A program made the translations under genes and the position numbers. 64,000 nt of DNA from a virus. Taxonomy: Duplodnaviria; Heunggongvirae; Uroviricota; Caudoviricetes. Shown here one piece after another: positions 6,384 through 46,620 of this stretch (its first letter is position 1; the number at the start of each line of letters is the position of its first letter). The DNA lies in IMG/VR virus record IMGVR_UViG_3300009502_000019. One strand, written 5' to 3'. Below the pieces are notes generated by a model. That model was not told the origin of the DNA. It searched no databases and saw only the letters and a list, made by a program, of their open reading frames with translations.

Positions 6384-6908
6384 TCATTTTAGCCATTGAG
6401 CACCACCAAACCTTCTACCATACTCGGCCAGTAGAAGCCCATCTGCGTCATCGAACCCCGTAAAGTCAATCTTCGGAAACGTCCGCTTTCCCACAGCTAA
6501 AGAAGCCTTCTTGAGCTCCGGGCCCTTGAGCCCTTCCGGAAGCATCTTCTTCTGCCACTCCTTACTATCAACGACACGATACCCAATCTTAAGACGCTCA
6601 ATAACAATCAGAGTGGCCTCATACGACCGAACAGCGGACTCAGTGGCCTTAAACCGTGTTGGGTTCACCATGGGCCGCTCCAGAAGCACAAAAGCCGGCA
6701 AAAGAACCTTGTTCACAGACAAAGCATAGTCAAGTATCTTCGTAAAAGCAGCCTCAAGAGCCGGCGTGTCAATTCGTGTAAAATACTGCTTCTGCTTTGT
6801 ATAGTGCAGGAGCTTCATAGTAGGAGTGCGACACAAGTGTGCCTCGCCGTTATCGTACACAGCACCAATTTGTCCAGAAATTCCATTGTCGATCCCGATA
6901 ATGGTCAT
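6384..6908 (-). CDS. RuvC-like Holliday junction resolvase (phage type)
   Basis: 174 aa. N-terminal IIGIDNGISG (catalytic Asp) and C-terminal DDADGLLLAEYG match the RuvC/RNase H-fold resolvase pattern seen in lactococcal-phage-type RuvC. Confidence 0.7.
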   Translation of the reverse strand: MTIIGIDNGISGQIGAVYDNGEAHLCRTPTMKLLHYTKQKQYFTRIDTPALEAAFTKILDYALSVNKVLLPAFVLLERPMVNPTRFKATESAVRSYEATLIVIERLKIGYRVVDSKEWQKKMLPEGLKGPELKKASLAVGKRTFPKIDFTGFDDADGLLLAEYGRRFGGAQWLK

Positions 6909-13475: not shown

Positions 13476-13518
13476 CTCTATATTACGGCTGTTTACGTAA
13501 AAAATTATGATATTTTTT
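13476..13518 (-). promoter_or_regulatory. Conserved ~45 bp promoter-like repeat, copy 1 (AAATATCATAATTTTTTACGTAAACAGCCGTAATATAGAG on the minus strand)
   Basis: One of five near-identical copies (13476, 20666, 27862, 45084, 46578). Each sits 10-35 nt upstream of a start codon, oriented with the downstream gene. Confidence 0.6.
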
Positions 13519-20665: not shown

Positions 20666-20708
20666 CTCTATATTACGGCTGTTTTCGGAAAAAATTATGA
20701 TATTTTTT
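20666..20708 (-). promoter_or_regulatory. Conserved promoter-like repeat, copy 2
   Basis: ctctatattacggctgttttcggaaaaaattatgatattttt. Also shares the extended aaaatagttcaaaaaa flank with copy 5. Confidence 0.6.
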
Positions 20709-20742: not shown

Positions 20743-22185
20743 CTAGCAAAACTCTACTTCAAACTGCTCTTGCTTGTATATAGACATTCTTTCTTTCGAA
20801 TGCTTAAGTAAGTATTTATTACCGTGGTCGCAAAAATCGTACACCGACACAACATTTTCTCCCTCCTTACGGCGAAGACTCCTACCTATCCTCTGAAGCA
20901 ACTGCCGGCGCGACTTCTTACCAGCAAGAAGGATTAACACTTCAATCCGGCTGATGTCAATTCCCTCGTCAATGATGTTTGTACTAATAAGTATCTGTAG
21001 TTTACCGGCCTTGAAGTCAGACAACGCCTGAGCCCTGTGGGCAGCTTTTCCTGATATGAACACAGAACTTATCCCGTTATTACTTAGTAGCTGCTCAACA
21101 ATCTCCCCATGCTCAAGGTAGTCCACCACGATCAAAGTTGACTTACCTGGGTTGTTCTTGATGATCTCGACGGCCTTTCCGTTGCGCTCGCTGTTCTGCA
21201 CGATGCCGAGCTTGACTACCATCTCGTATACCTTCTTCATGAGCTGCTGGCCAGAATAGAGCTCGTCTTTGGCCTCGAGCTCCGCCTTGGCCATTCCGAT
21301 AACGCCGCGAACCTGGCTTGAGACGTCCATCTCATACATGAAGATCTTGGGCTTCGCTGACACGTCAAGCGCTATCAACTCGTCGTTTGAGATCTTGTAG
21401 ACCACGTCTCCCAAAAACTGCCTCACCAAAACTCCGTTGTATTCGTTGGCAGGTGGCACCGTGCCACTGAAGCCCCAGCGGTAAGGCGCCGGGCATGCTT
21501 CAAGTACAGCAGTGAACTGCGCCGCCTGAGCATGGTGAACCTCGTCCTGTATAACGCACTGGAGACTTTTAAAATAGTCATCAACCTCCTGGTCAGCTCC
21601 GAGTCTATTAACAAGAGTTGTAATCATAGCTACAGTAACTGGTCTTATAAGAATGTCTTTCGCCGTAATGAAGCCGCACTTAAGTCCCGTGTACCTTTCA
21701 ATATACTCCACAGTCTGCTTCAACAGCTCCGACCTGTGTGTTAACACGAGAGTTGGCGCCGGAGCAAGCTTCTTTATCAACCCTGAGAAAATGGCCGTCT
21801 TCCCAGCGTTTGTGGCAGCCTCAATTAAGCAGTTCTTGTTAGCAATGCACTCGTCGATCGCCTTTAGCTGGTAATGCCGATCAGGATCATTAACGTCAAT
21901 TGTGTTGAGCTCAAGGCGTCCCTGGTCCACCTTCGGAAACTTCCTATTATCCACAACGTCAATCTTACGGAGCTTCCCGGACCTTAGCACATAGGACAAC
22001 AGCCCTATCGGAAACACACCCGTCCTAATGTCAAACATCCGTTTCTTACCGTCCCACTGGCCTCTCTTGTACGCCATCGAGTACTTAGCCCCTGGAACGT
22101 CAAAAGTGAGCACACTCCTTATCCACATAAGCTCTTCCCTGGTTCCCTGAACAAAACACTTACTTGGGCATAATAGGATTATCAA
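20743..22185 (-). CDS. SF2 DEAD/DEAH-box helicase
   Basis: 480 aa. Walker A TNAGKTAIF, DEAH box DEVHHAQA and motif VI QRIGRSLRR. Confidence 0.8.
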   Translation of the reverse strand: MIILLCPSKCFVQGTREELMWIRSVLTFDVPGAKYSMAYKRGQWDGKKRMFDIRTGVFPIGLLSYVLRSGKLRKIDVVDNRKFPKVDQGRLELNTIDVNDPDRHYQLKAIDECIANKNCLIEAATNAGKTAIFSGLIKKLAPAPTLVLTHRSELLKQTVEYIERYTGLKCGFITAKDILIRPVTVAMITTLVNRLGADQEVDDYFKSLQCVIQDEVHHAQAAQFTAVLEACPAPYRWGFSGTVPPANEYNGVLVRQFLGDVVYKISNDELIALDVSAKPKIFMYEMDVSSQVRGVIGMAKAELEAKDELYSGQQLMKKVYEMVVKLGIVQNSERNGKAVEIIKNNPGKSTLIVVDYLEHGEIVEQLLSNNGISSVFISGKAAHRAQALSDFKAGKLQILISTNIIDEGIDISRIEVLILLAGKKSRRQLLQRIGRSLRRKEGENVVSVYDFCDHGNKYLLKHSKERMSIYKQEQFEVEFC

Positions 22186-22340
22186 CTGGTGGCTCCTCTT
22201 GTTTAGCTTGCGGTGCTGCCGGGGGACACCGCTGCATTACCTGCAGCAGCTGAATCCGGCGAATGATCATGTTGTTTAAATGAGCCAACTTGTTTACGTC
22301 GTCCTCAGATGACAGCTTGAATATCACAGCTGTTAAAAGA

Positions 22341-23216
22341 TCATCGTCTAGCATACAGGGCAAGCTCAAACTTGTCTTTAATACTGACTTCTGTAGGAGT
22401 TGTCAGGATCTTCCTCAAGTAGTCTCTGTCAGCCAGATAAAGCTCGTTAGGATCATCATTCCCAGGGAAAAAAACTATCTTCGTGTGCACACCAGCCACC
22501 TTTAACCGCGTATACATCGCAATAGCTTTGTCTTTGATGTCCCCGTCCAGAGCAACCACAACCTCTTTAAACCCTATCGTCTTAATCTTGTCCACCTGCT
22601 CGTCAGAAATCCCAGACCCAAGCAGCGGAGTAACCGTAAATCCAAGTTTGTGAACTGAAATCGCGTCAAAAGCTCCTTCAACAATATATAAGCGCAGTCT
22701 GTTAACACTCCCCAAGAAGTACGGAAGTATTTTCTTTTTATCTATGACCGGGTTCAAATATCTACCTCCGAAAAACATGTGGCGAGAAACAAAGTAAACT
22801 ACTTTACCTCCCTCATAAAGAGGGATAATGAGCTTACCCCTATAGCGCCCTTGAGTGGCTGTAAGAAGATTATAAGTACCTATGTCACTCGCTGTAAGAC
22901 CACGACTCTCCAAGTACTCTTTATTTTTCTCATAGTCAACCGGAACAAACCCGTCAAGACTAAGTTCTTCCTTGCTTACACTAACAACTGCTTCACTAGA
23001 CTTCCAGTCACTGTCGTCAAACTCAAGGTGTTGATCCTTAAAAAACTTCCTTACCGTTCCCTTAGCATCACAGACCCAACAGTGGAACACACCCCTACTT
23101 GAATGCACCTCAAGGTTGTACTTTGTACCACCACAGTACGGGCAGTCTTTTAAAATAATCTGCTCCCTATTGACCTTGTGCTTATACTGCCTCTTAAGAG
23201 TGTCCTGCCACATCAA
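22341..23216 (-). CDS. DNA primase (CHC2 zinc finger plus TOPRIM)
   Basis: 291 aa. Zinc finger CPYCGG...HCWVC. TOPRIM motifs EGAFDAIS and LDGD. Confidence 0.8.
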   Translation of the reverse strand: MMWQDTLKRQYKHKVNREQIILKDCPYCGGTKYNLEVHSSRGVFHCWVCDAKGTVRKFFKDQHLEFDDSDWKSSEAVVSVSKEELSLDGFVPVDYEKNKEYLESRGLTASDIGTYNLLTATQGRYRGKLIIPLYEGGKVVYFVSRHMFFGGRYLNPVIDKKKILPYFLGSVNRLRLYIVEGAFDAISVHKLGFTVTPLLGSGISDEQVDKIKTIGFKEVVVALDGDIKDKAIAMYTRLKVAGVHTKIVFFPGNDDPNELYLADRDYLRKILTTPTEVSIKDKFELALYARR

Positions 23217-23611
23217 GCAACCCCCTGTGTCCTAAATACAGTATGATCCTTTCCAGAAGCCTTGGCATACTCGATAGTCTTTCCGGTCCCAGAACTCTCC
23301 CCGTCCCAGAAAAATAGACACATGTCGGCCATATCCACCATTGCCCTGTTTCTCACATGGCCACCCGCCCTGCCGAGAGAGCTAACGTACGGAAACTTGC
23401 CAACCACCATACCTAGCCTCTCCGCCTCTTCACCTGCAATCCCATCCGGAGAGTCTGGACAATCTCCATGAATCAAGATCCACTCCTTATCAGAAAACCT
23501 TCGAACCATGCTGCGCACGCGTTCCGGACAGCAATACCCTCTCGATCCACTAACCATAAGTATGCTTTTCATTTTCTCTTCTTTGGCAAAAGCTTGAAAC
23601 AGCTGGCACAC
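23213..23611 (-). CDS. Hypothetical protein, possibly a SLOG/DprA-like Rossmann fold (weak)
   Basis: 132 aa. LMVSGSRG...IHGDC...GIAGE pattern. Confidence 0.35.
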   Translation of the reverse strand: MCQLFQAFAKEEKMKSILMVSGSRGYCCPERVRSMVRRFSDKEWILIHGDCPDSPDGIAGEEAERLGMVVGKFPYVSSLGRAGGHVRNRAMVDMADMCLFFWDGESSGTGKTIEYAKASGKDHTVFRTQGVA

Positions 23612-23711
23612 ATCGTCGGCTCAATTGCCGCAGGAACCTTAACAGGACATGAGCACTGTACACTAGTCTTATGCTTCTTGTGGGGTCGCCACACAGTGTA
23701 TTCCATTGATT

Positions 23712-24080
23712 TCATCTTGACGCCTTCCTCCTTAAAAATAACGGGGTTGTCTCACCAACCCATCCGCCTTCTACGTTAAAGGACATATGTTCGATCGCAT
23801 CCTCCTCTGTCATACCCTCTCCCACAAGGACCTTAATGCATTCGTCGTAGTCATAACACGCCAGAGGCTTATTGAACTGGCAGGCGATTCCTACAAAAGC
23901 GTCCTCAAACCCGTCGGCTAGCAGAATCCTGTCCTCTTCACTGTACCCTAAGTCTTCAATGAACTCGTTAATGGAATCCCGCTTCCTACCAGCAGTACCA
24001 CGAGGAATTACTTCCGGGATCTGTGGAGATACTTTTTTCTTCTTTTTCATCGTCGGAAGTGCTTTTTTATTCTTTTTCAT
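23712..24080 (-). CDS. Hypothetical protein with lysine-rich N-terminus
   Basis: 122 aa ORF. Confidence 0.4.
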   Translation of the reverse strand: MKKNKKALPTMKKKKKVSPQIPEVIPRGTAGRKRDSINEFIEDLGYSEEDRILLADGFEDAFVGIACQFNKPLACYDYDECIKVLVGEGMTEEDAIEHMSFNVEGGWVGETTPLFLRRKASR

Positions 24081-24501
24081 TAGATGCCTCCAAGTAACGT
24101 ACCGCTTCGTGTAAAACTAAAATAGAGTCGCCGCTGTACCCTAGCATAAAGTTGCACCGAGCGCATAGTAAGCCCCTGATAGCTCCAGTAGTATGGTTGT
24201 GATCAACGCTAAGCCGTTTTTTTCCTGGGCATGTTTCAAAACATATAGCACATCTACCACGCTGTTTATCAAACAGCCTATCATACTCTTCTAAACCTAT
24301 ACCATAGTTATACTTAAGAGCTTCTCTTCGTTTTGATTCGGCTCCTTTAAGCGACTTACGGTATTGACGCCTAAGTTCCTTACACTCCGGAGAACTATAG
24401 TATTTTCTCCTCAACTCTTTGACTCTATCAGTCCTCTGATACTGTCTTTCGCGCTCTTTTACCTCCGGCAATTTGCGGCGCTGTCTATTGTACTCTCGCA
24501 T
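24067..24501 (-). CDS. Endonuclease VII-family HNH nuclease
   Basis: 144 aa. CAICFETC...LSVDHNHTTGAIRGLLCARCNFMLG matches the Endonuclease_7 signature. Confidence 0.7.
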   Translation of the reverse strand: MREYNRQRRKLPEVKERERQYQRTDRVKELRRKYYSSPECKELRRQYRKSLKGAESKRREALKYNYGIGLEEYDRLFDKQRGRCAICFETCPGKKRLSVDHNHTTGAIRGLLCARCNFMLGYSGDSILVLHEAVRYLEASNEKE

Positions 24502-24678
24502 ATGTCAAGATTTATCTTCTCCTACAAGCACTTGATATGTGGTACTTGGTACATAGAGGGCACTTGTATATCTTTAGTTTTGGAGCGTCCTTATATGCCC
24601 TTGACCAGTCCACAACCTTCTGTGCCTCAGCAGCCGTACTGAACACCTCTTTTGAGAGGCACATGGTTACTGCGTAAC

Positions 24679-25059
24679 TCATCTTTTTACTGCTTCCACT
24701 TTAACCATGCTCTTCAAGTAGTCCTTCGCCATCTGGTAGATCTCCTTAGCATCCTGCGGCATCTCCTTGGCGATGTCGCTATTAGCTATCTTTGGGAAAA
24801 TCTTGATCATGGCGTACTGCTTTGACGTCGGAACAAAGTTTAGTGCAAGCGCTATCAGTAAAGCCGGAACAAACACACTTCGTACCCCGCCAACAGCCAT
24901 CTTAGCCGTCTTTCTATCAGAGTCAGAGTAGGACATAAAGCTGCACGCACTTGCTACGATCAACCCAATGCCTGAAAAAACGAATAACATAGTGGCAACC
25001 ATACCCCACCCCTGAAGATTGTCCAACATCAACCACCAATAAACCTGTCCCTCTGTCAT
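24679..25059 (-). CDS. Small membrane protein
   Basis: 126 aa with three hydrophobic segments. Confidence 0.45.
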   Translation of the reverse strand: MTEGQVYWWLMLDNLQGWGMVATMLFVFSGIGLIVASACSFMSYSDSDRKTAKMAVGGVRSVFVPALLIALALNFVPTSKQYAMIKIFPKIANSDIAKEMPQDAKEIYQMAKDYLKSMVKVEAVKR

Positions 25060-25080
25060 TTTATCCCCCTTTTATGTTAG

Positions 25081-25152
25081 TGCACCCACCAGGGCTCGAA
25101 CCTGGAACCAAAGGATTATGAGTCCTCTGCTCTACCATTGAGCTATGGGTGC
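25081..25152 (-). tRNA. tRNA-Met (anticodon CAT), or a lysidine tRNA-Ile
   Basis: Folds by hand: acceptor GCACCCA/TGGGTGC, D-arm GCTC-AATGGTA-GAGC, anticodon stem GAGGA/TCCTT with loop CTCATAA, T-arm CCAGG-TTCGAGC-CCTGG. CCA is not encoded. Confidence 0.8.
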
Positions 25153-25180
25153 AAGTGTTAACCCCCCGAAAGTGTGGGTT

Positions 25181-25414
25181 TTACTCAAACTCCTTTAACT
25201 CTTGATCCTTAATAACTACATGAATACGCTCATCATCGTGCTTTGACCCAAACATACCGAAGTGCTCCATAACCGCCCAAAGAAGCTTACGACCATTCCT
25301 GGCTTCCGAGGCATGCTCGTCATCTTCAACAGCAATAAACCTCTCGCTCTTAGTGTCAGCGTCCTCGTATCGCAAAACAAACCCGTTATCCGCGTCTTCA
25401 ATCGTAAGTCTCAC
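25181..25414 (-). CDS. Hypothetical small acidic protein
   Basis: 77 aa ORF. Confidence 0.4.
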   Translation of the reverse strand: MRLTIEDADNGFVLRYEDADTKSERFIAVEDDEHASEARNGRKLLWAVMEHFGMFGSKHDDERIHVVIKDQELKEFE

Positions 25415-26871
25415 CTAGTCCTCCTGTCTTGTGCTTCCCGTTCACGTACCCTGTTTAATGCTTCTACTCCAACAATGTCTATGATGTACTTTGGCCAGTT
25501 ATCAGATGCTACGGCCTCAGGGTCCTTCCACGGGTGTATCTTAACAAGATCCCACGGAGCACTATAGGACCTTAAACTCCTGTCAAAGTCGACAAGCCAT
25601 CCGTAAAAAGGGTCCCACCCGTTTCGAGACTTCCCGACACAAAATATAGTCGGGCTAACGTCTTTATTTGCCCCGTCGTACTGACGCACAATTAGAAGTG
25701 TTGTATCCGCGATCTTGGCGATATTGCTCGATCCGTGGAAATCATCATTGTCAGGCATCTTCTTGTCTCTTGCCTTACGGCGCAGGTGGGAGAACATAAG
25801 CACAGGAATGCCACGCGCCTGAGTTAGGTCCTTGACCTTCCGCATGATCCCAGAGAGCTGAGAAGCCTCGGACGAGTCGTCTTCCATTCCGAAGTAATGC
25901 AAGTGGTCTACGACGACAAGGTCTGCATCCTGTATCCTACCGAGCTGCTGGAGTAGCTTATCAATGCGAAGGTCTGACTCGTTCTTGCCGTAGATGACCA
26001 ACTTACCCCTAAGTGCTGCCAACTCCTTCTCAGCAATCGCCTCAAAGCGCTCAATCCCTCGCAACCCATTGGCAAGATAAAGCGGGTAGGACATTGGCAT
26101 CCCCTTATTGGGGTTCTCGGGTGAGAAGTATTCCCTGGCGATGATCTCGTACTTGAACCGAGATATAACCTCATTCTTTGAACCTTCCAAGCAAATCAAG
26201 TATGTCTTCTTCCCAGCCATCGCATTGATGCGTGCTGTGTCGGCGCCGAATTGAGTTTTCCCGACACCACTCTCGGCTCCTACTACAACAAGTTCCCCTG
26301 GAAATATTCCAAGCAAGCACTCATTCAAAGCCGGTACAGAGTACTTGACTAGTTTGTCCGGTGTAATCCTAGCTAGGTCCCTGTTCTGCCGGTCTATAGC
26401 CTGATCAATCTCCATGAAAAACGAGTTGTCAAACGAATCGCCAAGTGGCTTCCTGGGTGCCTTCTCAACCGTCTCCATGAACTGGTAAGCCAACTGCCTG
26501 TAGTCGCTCCCTGGAGTGATCTTGTTGACGATCTTGATGAGGTTGCGCTCAAATACGAACCGGCCAAGCTCTTGGTAGACCTTGTCGATCAGGACTTCTG
26601 TACTTACATCGGTTACTACGGCCGCGATATCGTTTAAGGTTTTCTCGTAGGTCTTAATATTAGCCTTCTCATGGTCCGGGAGATCCCCGAGCATCATGAG
26701 CATGTCGCCGAACGTAGGGCGTTTGAAGTACTTGTCGTCGAAGCGGTAGGCTAGCTCAAGCAGGTTGCTCTGCACGGCATTTTCGAAGATGTCCTTTGGG
26801 AGCTTCCCGCAGAACTCGGCAAATACAGCGTCGTCAGTAAGGAACTTCTGCCAGAATGGTAGCCAGTTCAT
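25411..26871 (-). CDS. DnaB-like replicative DNA helicase
   Basis: 486 aa. Walker A GAESGVGKTQF, Walker B LVVVDHLHY, RecA-like C-terminal domain and an N-terminal helical domain. Confidence 0.85.
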   Translation of the reverse strand: MNWLPFWQKFLTDDAVFAEFCGKLPKDIFENAVQSNLLELAYRFDDKYFKRPTFGDMLMMLGDLPDHEKANIKTYEKTLNDIAAVVTDVSTEVLIDKVYQELGRFVFERNLIKIVNKITPGSDYRQLAYQFMETVEKAPRKPLGDSFDNSFFMEIDQAIDRQNRDLARITPDKLVKYSVPALNECLLGIFPGELVVVGAESGVGKTQFGADTARINAMAGKKTYLICLEGSKNEVISRFKYEIIAREYFSPENPNKGMPMSYPLYLANGLRGIERFEAIAEKELAALRGKLVIYGKNESDLRIDKLLQQLGRIQDADLVVVDHLHYFGMEDDSSEASQLSGIMRKVKDLTQARGIPVLMFSHLRRKARDKKMPDNDDFHGSSNIAKIADTTLLIVRQYDGANKDVSPTIFCVGKSRNGWDPFYGWLVDFDRSLRSYSAPWDLVKIHPWKDPEAVASDNWPKYIIDIVGVEALNRVREREAQDRRTR

Positions 26872-27827
26872 TTTACCTTCAGTACCCGGTTGCCCGAGCG
26901 GTTTGGATTGATTTTAGATAAGTATTTATGAATCACTGACTTGAATAACCCTGTAGTGTATGTGCTGTTCTTAACAAACTCGTCCTCGTCTTCTTCAAAG
27001 AATGCATCAATGAGCACAGGTATCTTGGTCGGACCAAGCCCACCTGCTAGTAGGTCTTTAAAGATCCTACTGTCGTTGTTGAAGTTCTGTGCAAAGTACT
27101 TCTGGTTAAACTTGTGCTCGTACGACTTGTAGAAGTACTGCATTAGCTCGAGTACCTCTTGAGAAGGCCCAAGTTTGCGTTCTTTAGGTGGCTTGTCAGG
27201 AGACTCAACAGGTGTGTACTCGCCGTCAGGCGAACAATTTACTTTCTTTTCCTTTTCTTTCCTTTCCTTTACTTTACTTTGTGGCGTTTCAGCAGGGTTT
27301 CGGACGTCTGAAACCCCGCTGAAACCCTGCTGAAACCCTAGTTTCTGGAGGGTTTCGGGTGTCTGAAACCCCGCTGAAACCACATTTTCTAGTTTCTGGA
27401 GGGTTTCGGGTGTCTGAAACCCCGCTGAAACTCTAGTTTCTGTATTGTTTCTGCCGCCGTAAATAGCTCTGTTACTGTCTCTCTTCTTGTTTACCTCACC
27501 AATCCGCTTTTGTATGCCACCAGAAGTAAGGGTGCCATCCGAGTCATACCTACTCTGTGAAAACAGGCCAATGTGCAGCATGTATTCGACCATCCTTTTT
27601 AGTTTATCCTCTTCAATACCAGTCCGGCGTACCCACAAGGCCCATTTAGGGTTATGCTGATCGTTTATAACAACCTCACCAGATCTGTCCTTGTATGCCC
27701 ACTGTAGTATCCGCACATACAGCCCAAACCCTTCAAGCCCGTACTCTGCTTCTAGCTCCTCGAGTTTTTGGTCGATGTCGCAGTCCATAGGAAAATAGTC
27801 TAGTCCTTCTTTGATTGGTCTCGCCAT
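26868..27827 (-). CDS. Replisome organiser / helicase-loader-like protein with internal iteron array
   Basis: 319 aa. N-terminus resembles the phage replisome-organiser N-terminal domain (DYFPMDCD...GFGLYVRILQ). Contains tandem VSAGFQTPETLQKL repeats encoded by the DNA repeats at 27286-27440. Confidence 0.6.
   Translation of the reverse strand: MARPIKEGLDYFPMDCDIDQKLEELEAEYGLEGFGLYVRILQWAYKDRSGEVVINDQHNPKWALWVRRTGIEEDKLKRMVEYMLHIGLFSQSRYDSDGTLTSGGIQKRIGEVNKKRDSNRAIYGGRNNTETRVSAGFQTPETLQKLENVVSAGFQTPETLQKLGFQQGFSGVSDVRNPAETPQSKVKERKEKEKKVNCSPDGEYTPVESPDKPPKERKLGPSQEVLELMQYFYKSYEHKFNQKYFAQNFNNDSRIFKDLLAGGLGPTKIPVLIDAFFEEDEDEFVKNSTYTTGLFKSVIHKYLSKINPNRSGNRVLKVK
27286..27440. repeat. Iteron-like tandem repeats (GGGTTTCGGnnGTCTGAAACCCCGCTGAAAC x3) inside the organiser gene; candidate replication origin
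   Basis: Three ~52-57 bp direct repeats, each carrying an inverted GGGTTTC/GAAACCC pair and extra GTTTC/GAAAC half-sites. A CTTT-rich tract lies upstream at 27241-27285. Confidence 0.6.
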
Positions 27828-27861
27828 TAGTCACCTTTCTAGGGGGTTGTAGCATCACACA

Positions 27862-27903
27862 CTATATATTACGGCTGTTTCAAGAAAAAATTATGATATT
27901 TTT
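27862..27903 (-). promoter_or_regulatory. Conserved promoter-like repeat, copy 3
   Basis: ctatatattacggctgtttcaagaaaaaattatgatattttt, upstream of the organiser gene start (27827) with an AAAGGTGA RBS. Confidence 0.6.
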
Positions 27904-27955
27904 AATGAGCTTTTCAGACGCTGGTGAAACATCTGAGCAGTCCTTTTACCAATGA

Positions 27956-28507
27956 CTACCGGTAGCATTTGAGATACTGTATAGCAGACTCGAGGATCTC
28001 AATGTTGTCACCACATTGACCGAGTATGAAATTGCATTTGTCACATAGGAGCCCGCGTACCTGGCTTGACATATGGCAATGATCCACCGACAGCTGCCTT
28101 CCAGGAGTCTGAAGTTTGCTACAGATAGCACACTTTCCGTCTTGGTTTGTAAACATTGTGTCGTACCACTCTGAAGTAACGCCAAATTCTTTTTTTCGAT
28201 GGTAGTCTTGGTGTTTTCTCTTGTTATTTTTGTACCTGTCTTTTCCCTTCTTGTTAGAGCAGCCTTTACAGTAGCACGCCACTCCGAAAGCCGTGTGTAT
28301 GTCTTTACCAAACTCATCTAGAGGTTTTGTCTCATGACACTTTGGACAATATGACTTTCCTTCTTTAATGAGTTTTTCTCGCCGGGTCATTGGTAGCTCA
28401 TAGGATCCATGGCGACGCAATCTAAAATAATGCGCGTTACATAGGCCACTTCTTTTGCTTGCAGCTTCTTTCTCACAGTTTGGCACTTTGCATGGTATAG
28501 TACTCAT
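27956..28507 (-). CDS. Endonuclease VII-family HNH nuclease with N-terminal zinc-finger domain (paralog of 24067-24501)
   Basis: 183 aa. CAICSK...LSVDHCHMSSQVRGLLCDKCNFILG. The N-terminus has CKVPNC...CNAHY and CPKCH zinc motifs. Confidence 0.7.
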   Translation of the reverse strand: MSTIPCKVPNCEKEAASKRSGLCNAHYFRLRRHGSYELPMTRREKLIKEGKSYCPKCHETKPLDEFGKDIHTAFGVACYCKGCSNKKGKDRYKNNKRKHQDYHRKKEFGVTSEWYDTMFTNQDGKCAICSKLQTPGRQLSVDHCHMSSQVRGLLCDKCNFILGQCGDNIEILESAIQYLKCYR

Positions 28508-28586
28508 AGAATCCTCCTATTTTAAGTTATAGAGTATTATACCACGTTTTTGCAACTTTGTCAATACAAATTTTAACATTTTTTTG

Positions 28587-29534
28587 CTATTCATACAGGC
28601 TTTGTTTTATGTACTCTTTGAATATAAGTGCGGTCTTTTTTCCAATAGCAGTTTGGGCTTCTTTACTAAAAACAATTTCTCCGACACTCTCTTTAAGCAC
28701 GTCCTCAACCATTGCTTTTATAATAGCCCCTGTTTCTGTAATAGTAGCATCCGGAAACCTATCAAGCACATGCATGAGGCGTTGACGCGTGACCCACTCG
28801 TCCGCGATAGCCTGTGCCTCTGTGAGTACTTCAAGGCGCTCTTTAGACACCTCTCTTTTCTTGGCAGTCTCCTGGAACTTCTCATTCTTGTGCTTGGCTA
28901 TTATCCGCTCACCATTGTTCTTCCGGAGCTCAACAAGAGTCCGTAAAACCACACCTTCACGGATATGCCCGGGCCCAACACCATTCCGCACAGCCTGGAC
29001 AGAGTCTGCCTCGGAAAGTGCATTTAAAACATCAAGATCTGTGGCAACCTCTTCATAATGAACAAACTCAATGCCGAGCTGAGCACACACAGACTCCGCG
29101 TTAGGCACAGCAAGCCAGTTTCCACCAAGCTTGACGTCGAAGGCTATAAACTTAAGCTCTTTGCCGTATGTGCCAGACATGCCCTGCTGCTTGCCACCAT
29201 AAGCTTCCCCAAAAACAATGAGCTCCTTGATGTTCATGGCTCGAAACTTGTTTTCTAGGTCTTGGTGGTTAAACAGTTTTATAAAGTTTTCGTGCTTTTC
29301 ACCGCCGGAGAAAAAATGCAGTTCAATCTTGTCAGGCCAGCGTTCTTGCCATTCAGCCTCAGTGTACCGCCTCGCGTCCTCGTTAACACCAATGATAGGT
29401 CCAAACACAAGCTGCCTGGACCGGTCAAGGCTAATATGTGCTGATGTTCCGTGGATCTTCTCCATAGCGTAGCAGCGCTTGAACATAAGAATTTCCTGGT
29501 TCTTGTAAAGATTATCTATCCCGAGATAGCCCAT
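28587..29534 (-). CDS. RNA ligase, Rnl2 (T4 RnlB)-like
   Basis: 315 aa. Motif I EKIHGTSA (lysine nucleotidyltransferase), matching T4 Rnl2 EKIHGTN, plus the downstream nucleotidyltransferase core. Confidence 0.7.
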   Translation of the reverse strand: MGYLGIDNLYKNQEILMFKRCYAMEKIHGTSAHISLDRSRQLVFGPIIGVNEDARRYTEAEWQERWPDKIELHFFSGGEKHENFIKLFNHQDLENKFRAMNIKELIVFGEAYGGKQQGMSGTYGKELKFIAFDVKLGGNWLAVPNAESVCAQLGIEFVHYEEVATDLDVLNALSEADSVQAVRNGVGPGHIREGVVLRTLVELRKNNGERIIAKHKNEKFQETAKKREVSKERLEVLTEAQAIADEWVTRQRLMHVLDRFPDATITETGAIIKAMVEDVLKESVGEIVFSKEAQTAIGKKTALIFKEYIKQSLYE

Positions 29535-45083: not shown

Positions 45084-45122
45084 CTATATTACGGCTGTTT
45101 CAAGAAAAAATTATGATATTTC
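45084..45122 (-). promoter_or_regulatory. Conserved promoter-like repeat, copy 4
   Basis: ctatattacggctgtttcaagaaaaaattatgatatttc, immediately upstream of the start at 45082. Confidence 0.55.
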
Positions 45123-45219
45123 TTATTTTTATTTGAATATATTTTTAACTATTTTTTGTAGTAATTGTAACTCGTTATGTATCAACAAGATACAGATACG
45201 AAATAATTAACGATATATG

Positions 45220-46577: not shown

Positions 46578-46620
46578 CAAAAAATATCATAATTTTTTCC
46601 GTAAACAGCCGTAATATAGA
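46578..46620 (+). promoter_or_regulatory. Conserved promoter-like repeat, copy 5 (plus orientation)
   Basis: aaaatatcataattttttccgtaaacagccgtaatataga, upstream of 46635 with a GAGGGGAAG RBS. Confidence 0.6.

Follow-up and report, generated by a model that had tools for sequence, protein, structure and literature searches.

A candidate replication origin inside a replisome-organizer gene of a tailed virus, with a pentamer tract conserved at the nucleotide level across its gene family

A replication origin placed inside the gene of its own organizer protein is an already known kind of element. In phage lambda, iterons followed by an AT-rich tract make up the origin, which occupies the middle of gene O, and extra iterons add residues to the O protein; two iterons in combination with the AT-rich region are enough for unwinding, and O binds A/T-rich single-stranded DNA (ssDNA) (PMC7466680). 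In Bacillus phage SPP1, oriL is found inside gene 38 and combines direct repeats bound by G38P with an AT-rich unwinding element, the helicase being gp40, of the DnaB family (PMC6316719). ORF13 of TP901-1 and Rep2009 of Tuc2009 are reported to bind repeat-rich regions in their own genes, regions that act as origins and give phage-encoded resistance in trans (PMC8965321). Among cellular and plasmid initiators, DnaA, RctB and the plasmid Rep proteins bind the repeats of the DNA unwinding element (DUE) as ssDNA, and for RepE the T residues of the DUE are important (PMC10797057). Here, we analyzed a stretch of 64,000 nucleotides of a large, uncultured Caudoviricetes virus (IMG/VR record IMGVR_UViG_3300009502_000019), referred to below as the window, which is part of a genome of at least 120 to 200 kb and in which a replisome-organizer gene contains an array of short inverted half-sites followed by a purine-rich tract of pentamers.

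We propose that the 216 bp from 27238 to 27453 are a candidate replication origin, or one of several, bound by the organizer, and we assign this reading a probability of about 0.6. The best reading is an origin of the lambda/SPP1 type, located within the gene and made of iterons and an unwinding tract, at which organizer binding, unwinding, helicase loading and origin firing would take place. It builds on the anatomy of the locus, repeats present at the level of DNA, the domain architecture of the protein, conservation throughout the family and a reversed pattern of synonymous and nonsynonymous changes. An in-gene origin had been put forward at this place from a reading of the DNA sequence alone (the original prediction), and whatever could be checked by computation agreed with it: domain layout, helicase neighbor, repeats at the DNA level, tract, homologs and likeness to Tuc2009. 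The pentamer tract at 27238 to 27281, which the original prediction did not mention, is the most conserved part of the locus and the strongest evidence. What appears to be new is an in-gene origin in the DUF4373 family together with a tract that is nearly invariant at the nucleotide level; neither is described in the literature searched, where no paper contained the 24-mer string given below or tied Lin1244_N/DUF4373 organizers to an origin.

The array stood out in the repeat searches of the window. Tandem Repeats Finder gave its top score (197) to a tandem repeat at 27286-27431 with a period of 51, 2.8 copies and 86% matches, while a repeat search returned three 51-nt copies starting at 27283, 27338 and 27389 (identities of 75, 100 and 92%) and seven copies of CTGAAACC(C), spaced by 11 nt inside runs. 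Allowing up to three mismatches, the 22-mer GGGTTTCGGGTGTCTGAAACCC matched the window solely at 27295, 27350 and 27401 (0 expected), and thus the iteron-like repeats first noticed in the organizer gene are real. Pentamers GTTTC/GAAAC numbered 15 in 170 bp, against 0.38 expected and 4 in the runner-up window of the same size. The resulting half-site array spans 27282-27453 in runs spaced by 11 bp and is unique to this site in the 64 kb; no second iteron cluster was found within the window, and a minor GTTTC/GAAAC cluster at 41.5 kb consisted of scattered pentamers without an array. The array continues beyond the extent initially given, 27286 to 27440, up to 27453, with two more half-sites at 27436 and 27447; individual half-sites had been placed correctly to within 1 nt (GTTTCAGC occupies 27286-27293 rather than 27287-27294).

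Half-sites have the form (C/G)NGAAAC or its complement, in runs that alternate in orientation and form three 22-bp palindromes with flanking sites. All 15 half-sites and the three palindromes fall inside the organizer coding sequence. Read along the coding (minus) strand, two distal CAGAAAC sites are followed by unit A, a 7-bp spacer, unit B and unit C (Table 1). Unit A has GTTTCAG twice and then CNGAAAC twice, with unit B laid out alike, and unit C, which adjoins the tract, has GTTTCAG three times and then CNGAAAC twice, with its palindrome GGGTTTCGGACGTCTGAAACCC at 27295-27316. A scan of viral contigs with the bare palindrome GGGTTTC-N8-GAAACCC retrieved isolated chance matches only and was uninformative. 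The GTTTC half-site is translated in four ways (VSA, GFQ, GFS and VSD) and the GAAAC half-site in six (ETL, QKL, RNP, RNN, ETR and ETP). Since the half-sites are thus read in all three frames, giving ten different tripeptides in total, what repeats is a DNA motif, spaced on a lattice of one helical turn, and not a peptide. The threefold tandem peptide described originally did not hold either, given that VSAGFQTPETLQKL occurs twice and the third unit encodes GFQQGFSGVSDVRNPAETP.

The gene that hosts the array had been called organizer-like, and profile searches bear this out. Its N terminus matches Lin1244_N/DUF4373 (PF14297) over the full profile (residues 11 to 105) at 56.5 bits, against a gathering cutoff of 25, and the PHROGs that the protein matches carry the annotations replication initiation protein or replisome organizer. 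In an AlphaFold2 model, amino acids (aa) 13 to 126 reach a predicted local distance difference test (pLDDT) value of >90, aa 131 to 209 stay at <50, and aa 223 to 306 are helical. The N-domain is modeled as a winged helix resembling those of ORC/Cdc6, the N-terminal domain of DnaD and plasmid Rep proteins, and, according to the same model, the array and tract encode aa 126 to 196, in the linker between the N-domain and the C-domain. The start codon of the DnaB-like helicase gene overlaps the stop codon of the organizer gene by 4 nt.

The tract begins 4 nt after the end of the last half-site. On the coding strand, its sequence is CAAAGTAAAGTAAAGGAAAGGAAAGAAAAGGAAAAGAAAGTAAA, and the core 24-mer at 27258-27281, CAAAGTAAAGTAAAGGAAAGGAAA, agrees at 23 of 24 positions with the family consensus CAAAGTAAAGTAAAGGAAAGTAAA. 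This 24-mer is located at nt 546 of the gene, in frame 0 (CAA in frame), at the domain junction. The tract recurs nowhere else in the window (6 overlapping matches versus 0.12 expected), it is the most purine/pyrimidine strand-asymmetric 44-mer of the 64 kb, and it is within the 0.8% least stable 40-mers.

In an alignment of 40 homologs with 25 to 40% identity, a nearly invariant peptide, PQSKVKE(S/R)K, is found at the position of the tract. Eight codons of the tract (CAA AGT AAA GTA AAG GAA/AAA AGT/AGG AAA) were identical in 19 of 19 diverged representatives, with a background usage of those codons of merely 0.19 to 0.68; in the same genes, the invariant N-terminal residues A2, P4, G8, L9, Y11, F12 and P13 use all of their synonymous codons. 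Given that a pattern taken from the tract had helped to gather the first set of loci, the set was re-ascertained by the N-domain alone, aligned against one genome per species, which provided 77 unique genes. The 24-mer CAAAGTAAAGTAAAGGAAAGTAAA was exact in 15 of them, had one mismatch in 19 and was present with up to three mismatches in 53 of the 77, homologs that have just 30 to 40% protein identity. Its carriers span at least six phyla, among them Bacillota, Bacteroidota, Ignavibacteriota, Elusimicrobiota and Chloroflexota, and the groups represented include Clostridia, Bacilli, Negativicutes and Bdellovibrionales. At least 120 viral contigs had the exact 24-mer, each of them a single time and always in phase 0; of 119 copies, 113 were inside an open reading frame (ORF) matching the hidden Markov model (HMM) of the N-domain; four of the six exceptions were cut at the ends of the locus.

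In the 63 of the 77 genes with a recognizable tract, codon differences from the consensus were 4 synonymous versus 100 nonsynonymous (81 of the 111 changed bases were purines), while the 13 N-terminal codons of those genes had 259 synonymous and 86 nonsynonymous differences. Because the pattern in the tract is the reverse of that at the N terminus, the constraint acts on the nucleic acid and not on the protein. Position by position, the A-triplets are 95 to 100% invariant, the following G 76 to 95%, and the fifth base is T or a purine; conservation fades by about +40. These values bear on a protein-level alternative, the tandem duplication of a low-complexity linker in which selection sees the K/E-rich peptide QSKVKESK. 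The protein segment encoded by the array and tract is indeed predicted to be disordered, duplication often lengthens linkers of this sort, and the 51-nt period preserves the reading frame. However, one DNA half-site giving ten tripeptides in three frames, units that are palindromic, a ratio of synonymous to nonsynonymous differences opposite to that expected of selection on a peptide, and an identical codon choice in all 19 diverged representatives make this explanation extremely improbable; a tandem repeat at the peptide level is contradicted by the three-frame reading and the codon differences.

The tract also marks a boundary within the organizer family, with different C-terminal domains (DnaB_2, Phg_2220_C, PF25200 or none) right after it. 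A locus of IMG/VR UViG_3300029288_001145 (L219:2804-3682) carries the exact 24-mer in the linker of an organizer without a Lin1244_N match, which has phrog_10469 and phrog_5968 but no Pfam match and in which the palindrome TCGTACGA is present three times downstream of the tract, not upstream. Both the variable C-domains and this organizer with a different N-domain would be expected if the tract were a recombination junction for swapping N- and C-terminal modules, the upstream repeats being incidental. Nevertheless, selection for recombinability is second-order and weak, and is unlikely to hold A-triplets 98 to 100% invariant across phyla; the repeats that adjoin the tract and the analogous, nonhomologous tracts of Tuc2009 and r1t (see below) would also go unexplained. 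We therefore regard a junction as highly unlikely, and the exchange of modules more likely results secondarily from a functional element being conserved. From their sequences, the organizer genes seem to be modular, with an N-domain that would bind the origin, a linker that would hold it and a putative recruiting C-domain.

Several isolated phages have the tract at zero or one mismatch, namely, Enterococcus phiFL1A, Lactobacillus iLp84, Paenibacillus PG1, Listeria B054, Lactococcus bIL286 and Latilactobacillus TMW 1.2272 P1. It is degenerate in Bacillus phage Pavlov and Bacteroides phage BF1-TP2 and, among the isolated phages compared, absent in BS-TP4. On a 2,672-bp metagenomic ENA contig, the gene of the variant proteins P0053 and P0054 is split inside the tract, at the equivalent of ca. 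27258-27270 of the window: P0053 (200 aa) terminates in ...SKVKEKERKGKESKLFA, and a separate 91-aa product begins at an internal Met of the C-domain. The protein sequences are consistent with a 1-nt insertion in an A-run, which may be an error of sequencing or else a natural variant in which the two domains are separated. In L230 (IMG/VR UViG_3300020050_009634, minus strand, near 6670), the N-domain ORF is broken, leaving a 77-aa fragment, and the palindrome GTTTCTGTCACAGAAAC and the exact tract ca. 280 nt downstream are kept in a separate open stretch of 63 codons, which could be a pseudogene or an assembly error. A suspected split at the tract in isolated Enterococcus phages was discarded: the break in phiFL2A is at residue 89, within the N-domain.

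Repeats next to the tract are a family feature as well, with sequences that differ among lineages. A perfect palindrome with arms of at least 7 nt was present in the 120 nt before the tract in 44 of 92 genes, compared with 6 of 92 in one control segment and 8 of 90 in another, and repeated 8-mers were present there in 63 of 92. Common types in the homologs were GTTAATGNNNACATTAAC (translated as VNxDIN) and GTTTCTGACGCAGAAAC (VSDAET), the latter in the closest relatives of the window, which have the half-site core (A/T)GAAAC in common with it, as well as the junction GAAACGCCA|CAAAG. A third control segment (codons 50 to 90) was unexpectedly rich in palindromes because many genomes place a second palindrome copy inside the region coding for the N-domain. 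This copy, the same or nearly identical, is at nt 165 or 198 of the gene, ca. 225 bp upstream of the linker copy (for instance, at nt 165 and ca. 390 to 401 in L129, L132 and L136, and at nt 199 and 424 in L145 and L199); the gene of the window has none inside its N-domain coding region. The second copy and the linker copy change together between iteron classes, and such covariation of two sites in one genome suggests that a single factor recognizes both. Covariation of the iteron class with the N-domain sequence was set aside as evidence of binding, since shared ancestry would give the same pattern.

We can envisage how such a locus would work. The winged-helix N-domains, as dimers or oligomers, would bind along one face of the duplex to the lattice of half-sites, in a complex similar to the lambda O-some, and this nucleoprotein complex would destabilize the adjoining pentamer tract, so that the duplex opens there. 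Given the exact nucleotide conservation across phyla, the tract is probably recognized in a sequence-specific way, possibly as ssDNA on the T-rich or the A-rich strand, instead of serving merely as a site that melts easily. The C-domain of the organizer would then recruit or deliver the DnaB-like helicase encoded by the next gene onto the tract. Since the mRNA is purine-rich at the tract, an R-loop is a possible variant. At the level of the family, we tentatively suggest, with somewhat less than even confidence, that the (AAAGN) tract of five to eight pentamers is a previously undescribed initiation signal recognized by its exact sequence and shared almost unchanged by DUF4373-type organizer genes of phages and prophages in at least six bacterial phyla. 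If so, the tract would be a counterpart, in phages and within a coding sequence, of the DnaA-trio or of plasmid DUE repeats; its roles could be ssDNA binding by the organizer, helicase loading or the seeding of an R-loop, and the neighboring palindromes, variable between lineages, would provide specificity.

Upstream of the organizer gene, 59 nt before its ATG, is a promoter-like element whose 16-mer AAAAATTATGATATTT has five exact copies in the window (0.02 expected). Several copies have a longer common flank (...TATATTACGGCTGTTT...), the reverse complement holds a -10-like CATAAT, and the two copies compared with gene starts (27886 and 45106) are both just upstream of one. Judging from this arrangement, the repeated 16-mer is probably a phage promoter or regulatory element; transcription from it would cross the array and the tract and could help opening. 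It also raises the question of whether the repeats are binding sites for autoregulation or for a transcriptional roadblock in the organizer-helicase operon rather than a replication start. Palindromic sites on a helical lattice are found ca. 400 to 550 nt downstream of the promoter-like element and upstream of the helicase gene, a protein bound there would stand in the path of RNA polymerase, and the GC skew lends the origin no support. Operators, however, normally overlap promoters, and the motif is at no promoter in the window; regulation would also leave unexplained a tract conserved at the nucleotide level across phyla and the likeness to the in-gene origin of Tuc2009. We consider regulation in place of replication unlikely, and it is possible for autoregulation and origin function to coexist.

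Nucleotide-level conservation is equally expected of an element acting as RNA, through hairpins and an unstructured purine-rich stretch of mRNA controlling translation, pausing or stability, or through an R-loop on the pyrimidine-rich template, which at the tract would itself open an origin. The coding-strand RNA folds at -76.1 kcal/mol (z = -6.0 versus shuffled sequences) with the tract unpaired. Nonetheless, any palindrome scores a strong fold z, and the ssDNA fold was stronger still (z = -9.6). No Rfam 15 family reached its gathering score, the best two being microRNA-precursor models with 19 to 20 bits versus 49 and 100, and there were 0 terminator-like sites (GC-rich hairpin plus T-run) in 26700-28100. 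Direct subrepeats of 11 bp in runs of two or three fit binding to one face of a duplex better than they fit an RNA fold, and the hosts span phyla with different translation initiation signals. We consider an RNA element a very unlikely explanation.

Several observations weigh against the origin proposed here. In the literature searched, there is no experimental binding or origin activity for any member of the Lin1244_N family. No separate helicase-loader gene was recognized. At 44 nt, the tract is short, and other parts of the window are less stable, several intergenic stretches being AT-richer. Its presence in the L219 organizer disfavors a recognition that depends specifically on the Lin1244_N fold. 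In the four near-identical metagenomic contigs (L003 to L005 among the loci compared), the array is 100% identical, so they yield no signal of variation within the lineage. Since the window is only part of the genome, other origins or recombination-dependent replication may dominate. Finally, cumulative GC skew, a check suggested with the original prediction, had no inflection at 27.3 kb and a minimum at ca. 45 kb; this minimum follows a switch in transcription polarity, which makes the skew uninformative.

The last two points lead to the possibility that the main origin is elsewhere, for example, in the divergent AT-rich region at ca. 45.1 kb or outside the window, and that the 27.3-kb element is secondary or vestigial. 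Along with the skew minimum, the least stable 60-mer of the window (45105-45164) is there, and the 64 kb analyzed belong to a genome of at least 120 to 200 kb. Against this, the 45.1-kb region has no iteron-like repeats and does have a copy of the promoter-like 16-mer, and the skew change tracks transcription polarity because the region is where gene orientation flips. No replication-initiator gene adjoins 45.1 kb among the ORFs examined, and the element at 27.3 kb is intact and strongly constrained. A main origin in another place appears quite unlikely to us, and we retain the in-gene origin at 27238-27453 as the preferred reading.

Table 1. Positions of the elements of the candidate origin, the organizer gene and associated features in the window
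Feature	Position	Strand	Details
Replisome-organizer gene, 319 aa	26868..27827	-	N-domain aa 1-126 (27450-27827)
Organizer linker, predicted disordered	27201-27437		aa 131-209
Organizer helical C-domain	26910-27161		aa 223-306
DnaB-like replicative helicase gene	25411..26871	-	PF03796 DnaB_C, E = 7.9e-22; phrog_19
Pentamer tract, ~8 (AAAGN) units on coding strand	27238..27281	-	Tandem Repeats Finder periods 5, 10, 15
Iteron unit C, adjoining the tract	27282..27336		Five 11-bp half-site units
Iteron unit B	27337..27380		Four 11-bp half-site units, two per orientation; palindrome GGGTTTCGGGTGTCTGAAACCC at 27350-27371
Spacer between units A and B	27381-27387		7 bp
Iteron unit A	27388..27431		44-bp core identical to unit B; palindrome 27401-27422
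Two distal half-sites	27432..27453		Coding-strand CAGAAAC; 11 bp apart, in register with unit A; GTTTC at 27436, 27447
Promoter-like element upstream of organizer	27886..27917	-	Overlaps weak sigma-70-like match CTGAAA-16-CATAAT; putative promoter
AAAAATTATGATATTT copies	13500-13515, 20690-20705, 27886-27901, 45106-45121	+	
AAAAATTATGATATTT copy	46582-46597	-	

Genes for a Toprim primase and a UvsW-like helicase are found farther downstream, as seen on an identical contig. The organizer protein is present on 13 metagenomic contigs of up to ca. 200 kb, and megablast of the locus against isolated phages gave no DNA match. Two genes for endonucleases of the endonuclease VII type (PF02945), mutually distant relatives at 27956-28507 and 24067-24501 (both on the minus strand), bracket the organizer-helicase pair and may be homing endonucleases flanking the replication module. 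In L004, the endonuclease upstream of the organizer looked different at first, but this reading was dropped, as the locus has 100% identity with the window and its shorter gene call is a truncation at the contig end. An RNA ligase gene is located at 28587-29534. Through L003, 35453-36919 (minus strand) and the genes upstream of it were seen to include a NAMPT/NAPRTase-like protein (488 aa) and a ribose-phosphate pyrophosphokinase-like gene. The genes of the nicotinamide adenine dinucleotide (NAD) salvage type and the RNA ligase fit a large phage with auxiliary metabolic genes.

For this phage, the analysis provides a concrete candidate origin of 216 bp and a model of how replication would start. 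Beyond it, Lin1244_N/DUF4373 organizer genes occur widely among the phages and prophages that infect gut, dairy and soil bacteria, and one short pattern finds the cis element, which would make origin annotation possible in thousands of uncultured phage genomes. A candidate use is in origin-decoy (Per-type) constructs for phage resistance in dairy starter strains. The tract would also be a clean example of a nucleic acid signal that overrides codon choice inside a gene.

In the DnaA-trios and the DUEs of RK2 (TrfA) and F (RepE), short repeated motifs follow straight after the last duplex binding site, and initiators recognize them by sequence on one strand. The window has a similar short repeat adjoining its last half-site, with one strand T-rich. 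Its period, however, is 5 nt and not 3 or 13 nt, the element is translated, and ssDNA binding by Lin1244_N proteins is hypothetical. Moreover, unlike iteron-plasmid origins of the RepE/TrfA/pi type, the locus has no DnaA boxes: no match to TTATNCACA with up to one mismatch was found in 22173-29101, and the total for the window (61 versus 52 +/- 7) is at chance level.

The likeness to lambda and the Stx phages is in the order of the parts, with repeats that, in the direction of the gene, come before an A-rich tract, and with a helicase-related gene next. The parts themselves differ. The organizer of the window is a Lin1244_N winged helix and not a member of the lambda O family; its sites are palindromes of 11-bp half-sites with flanking sites, compared with four 19-bp iterons in lambda; and the next gene encodes the DnaB-like helicase itself, where lambda has a P-type loader. 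In addition, the tract is a pentamer repeat with exact conservation across phyla, a property not reported for the AT-rich region of lambda (PMC7466680). With SPP1, the window shares repeats and an unwinding-type tract inside the gene of the organizer itself, as well as a helicase of the DnaB family, while SPP1 relies on gp39 as its dedicated loader and possesses oriR as a second origin, and both the organizer family and the repeat sequences are different.

The organizers of the lactococcal P335 phages TP901-1, Tuc2009 and r1t have N-domains without a match to the Lin1244_N HMM, and the AAAGN 24-mer is absent from all three (best match with 7 to 10 mismatches). Despite this, Tuc2009 (L416:7487-7538), whose in-gene origin has been characterized by experiment, repeats CAACCA on an 11-bp lattice, and after these repeats comes a purine tract with GATAG/GTTAG/GTAAG pentamers and a periodicity of 5 and 15 nt. 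In ORF11 of r1t, a putative organizer (L417:7251-7291), four GGAACC on an 11-bp lattice are directly followed by three copies of AGATAAGAATAGATT, 15 nt long and purine-rich, and TP901-1 has an A-rich run with a 15-nt periodicity. The C-terminal modules of these lactococcal proteins, DnaB_2 and Phg_2220_C, are also found fused to Lin1244_N. The tracts of Tuc2009 and r1t are analogous, not homologous, to that of the window, and such purine tracts may be typical of the origins that phages keep inside their organizer genes.

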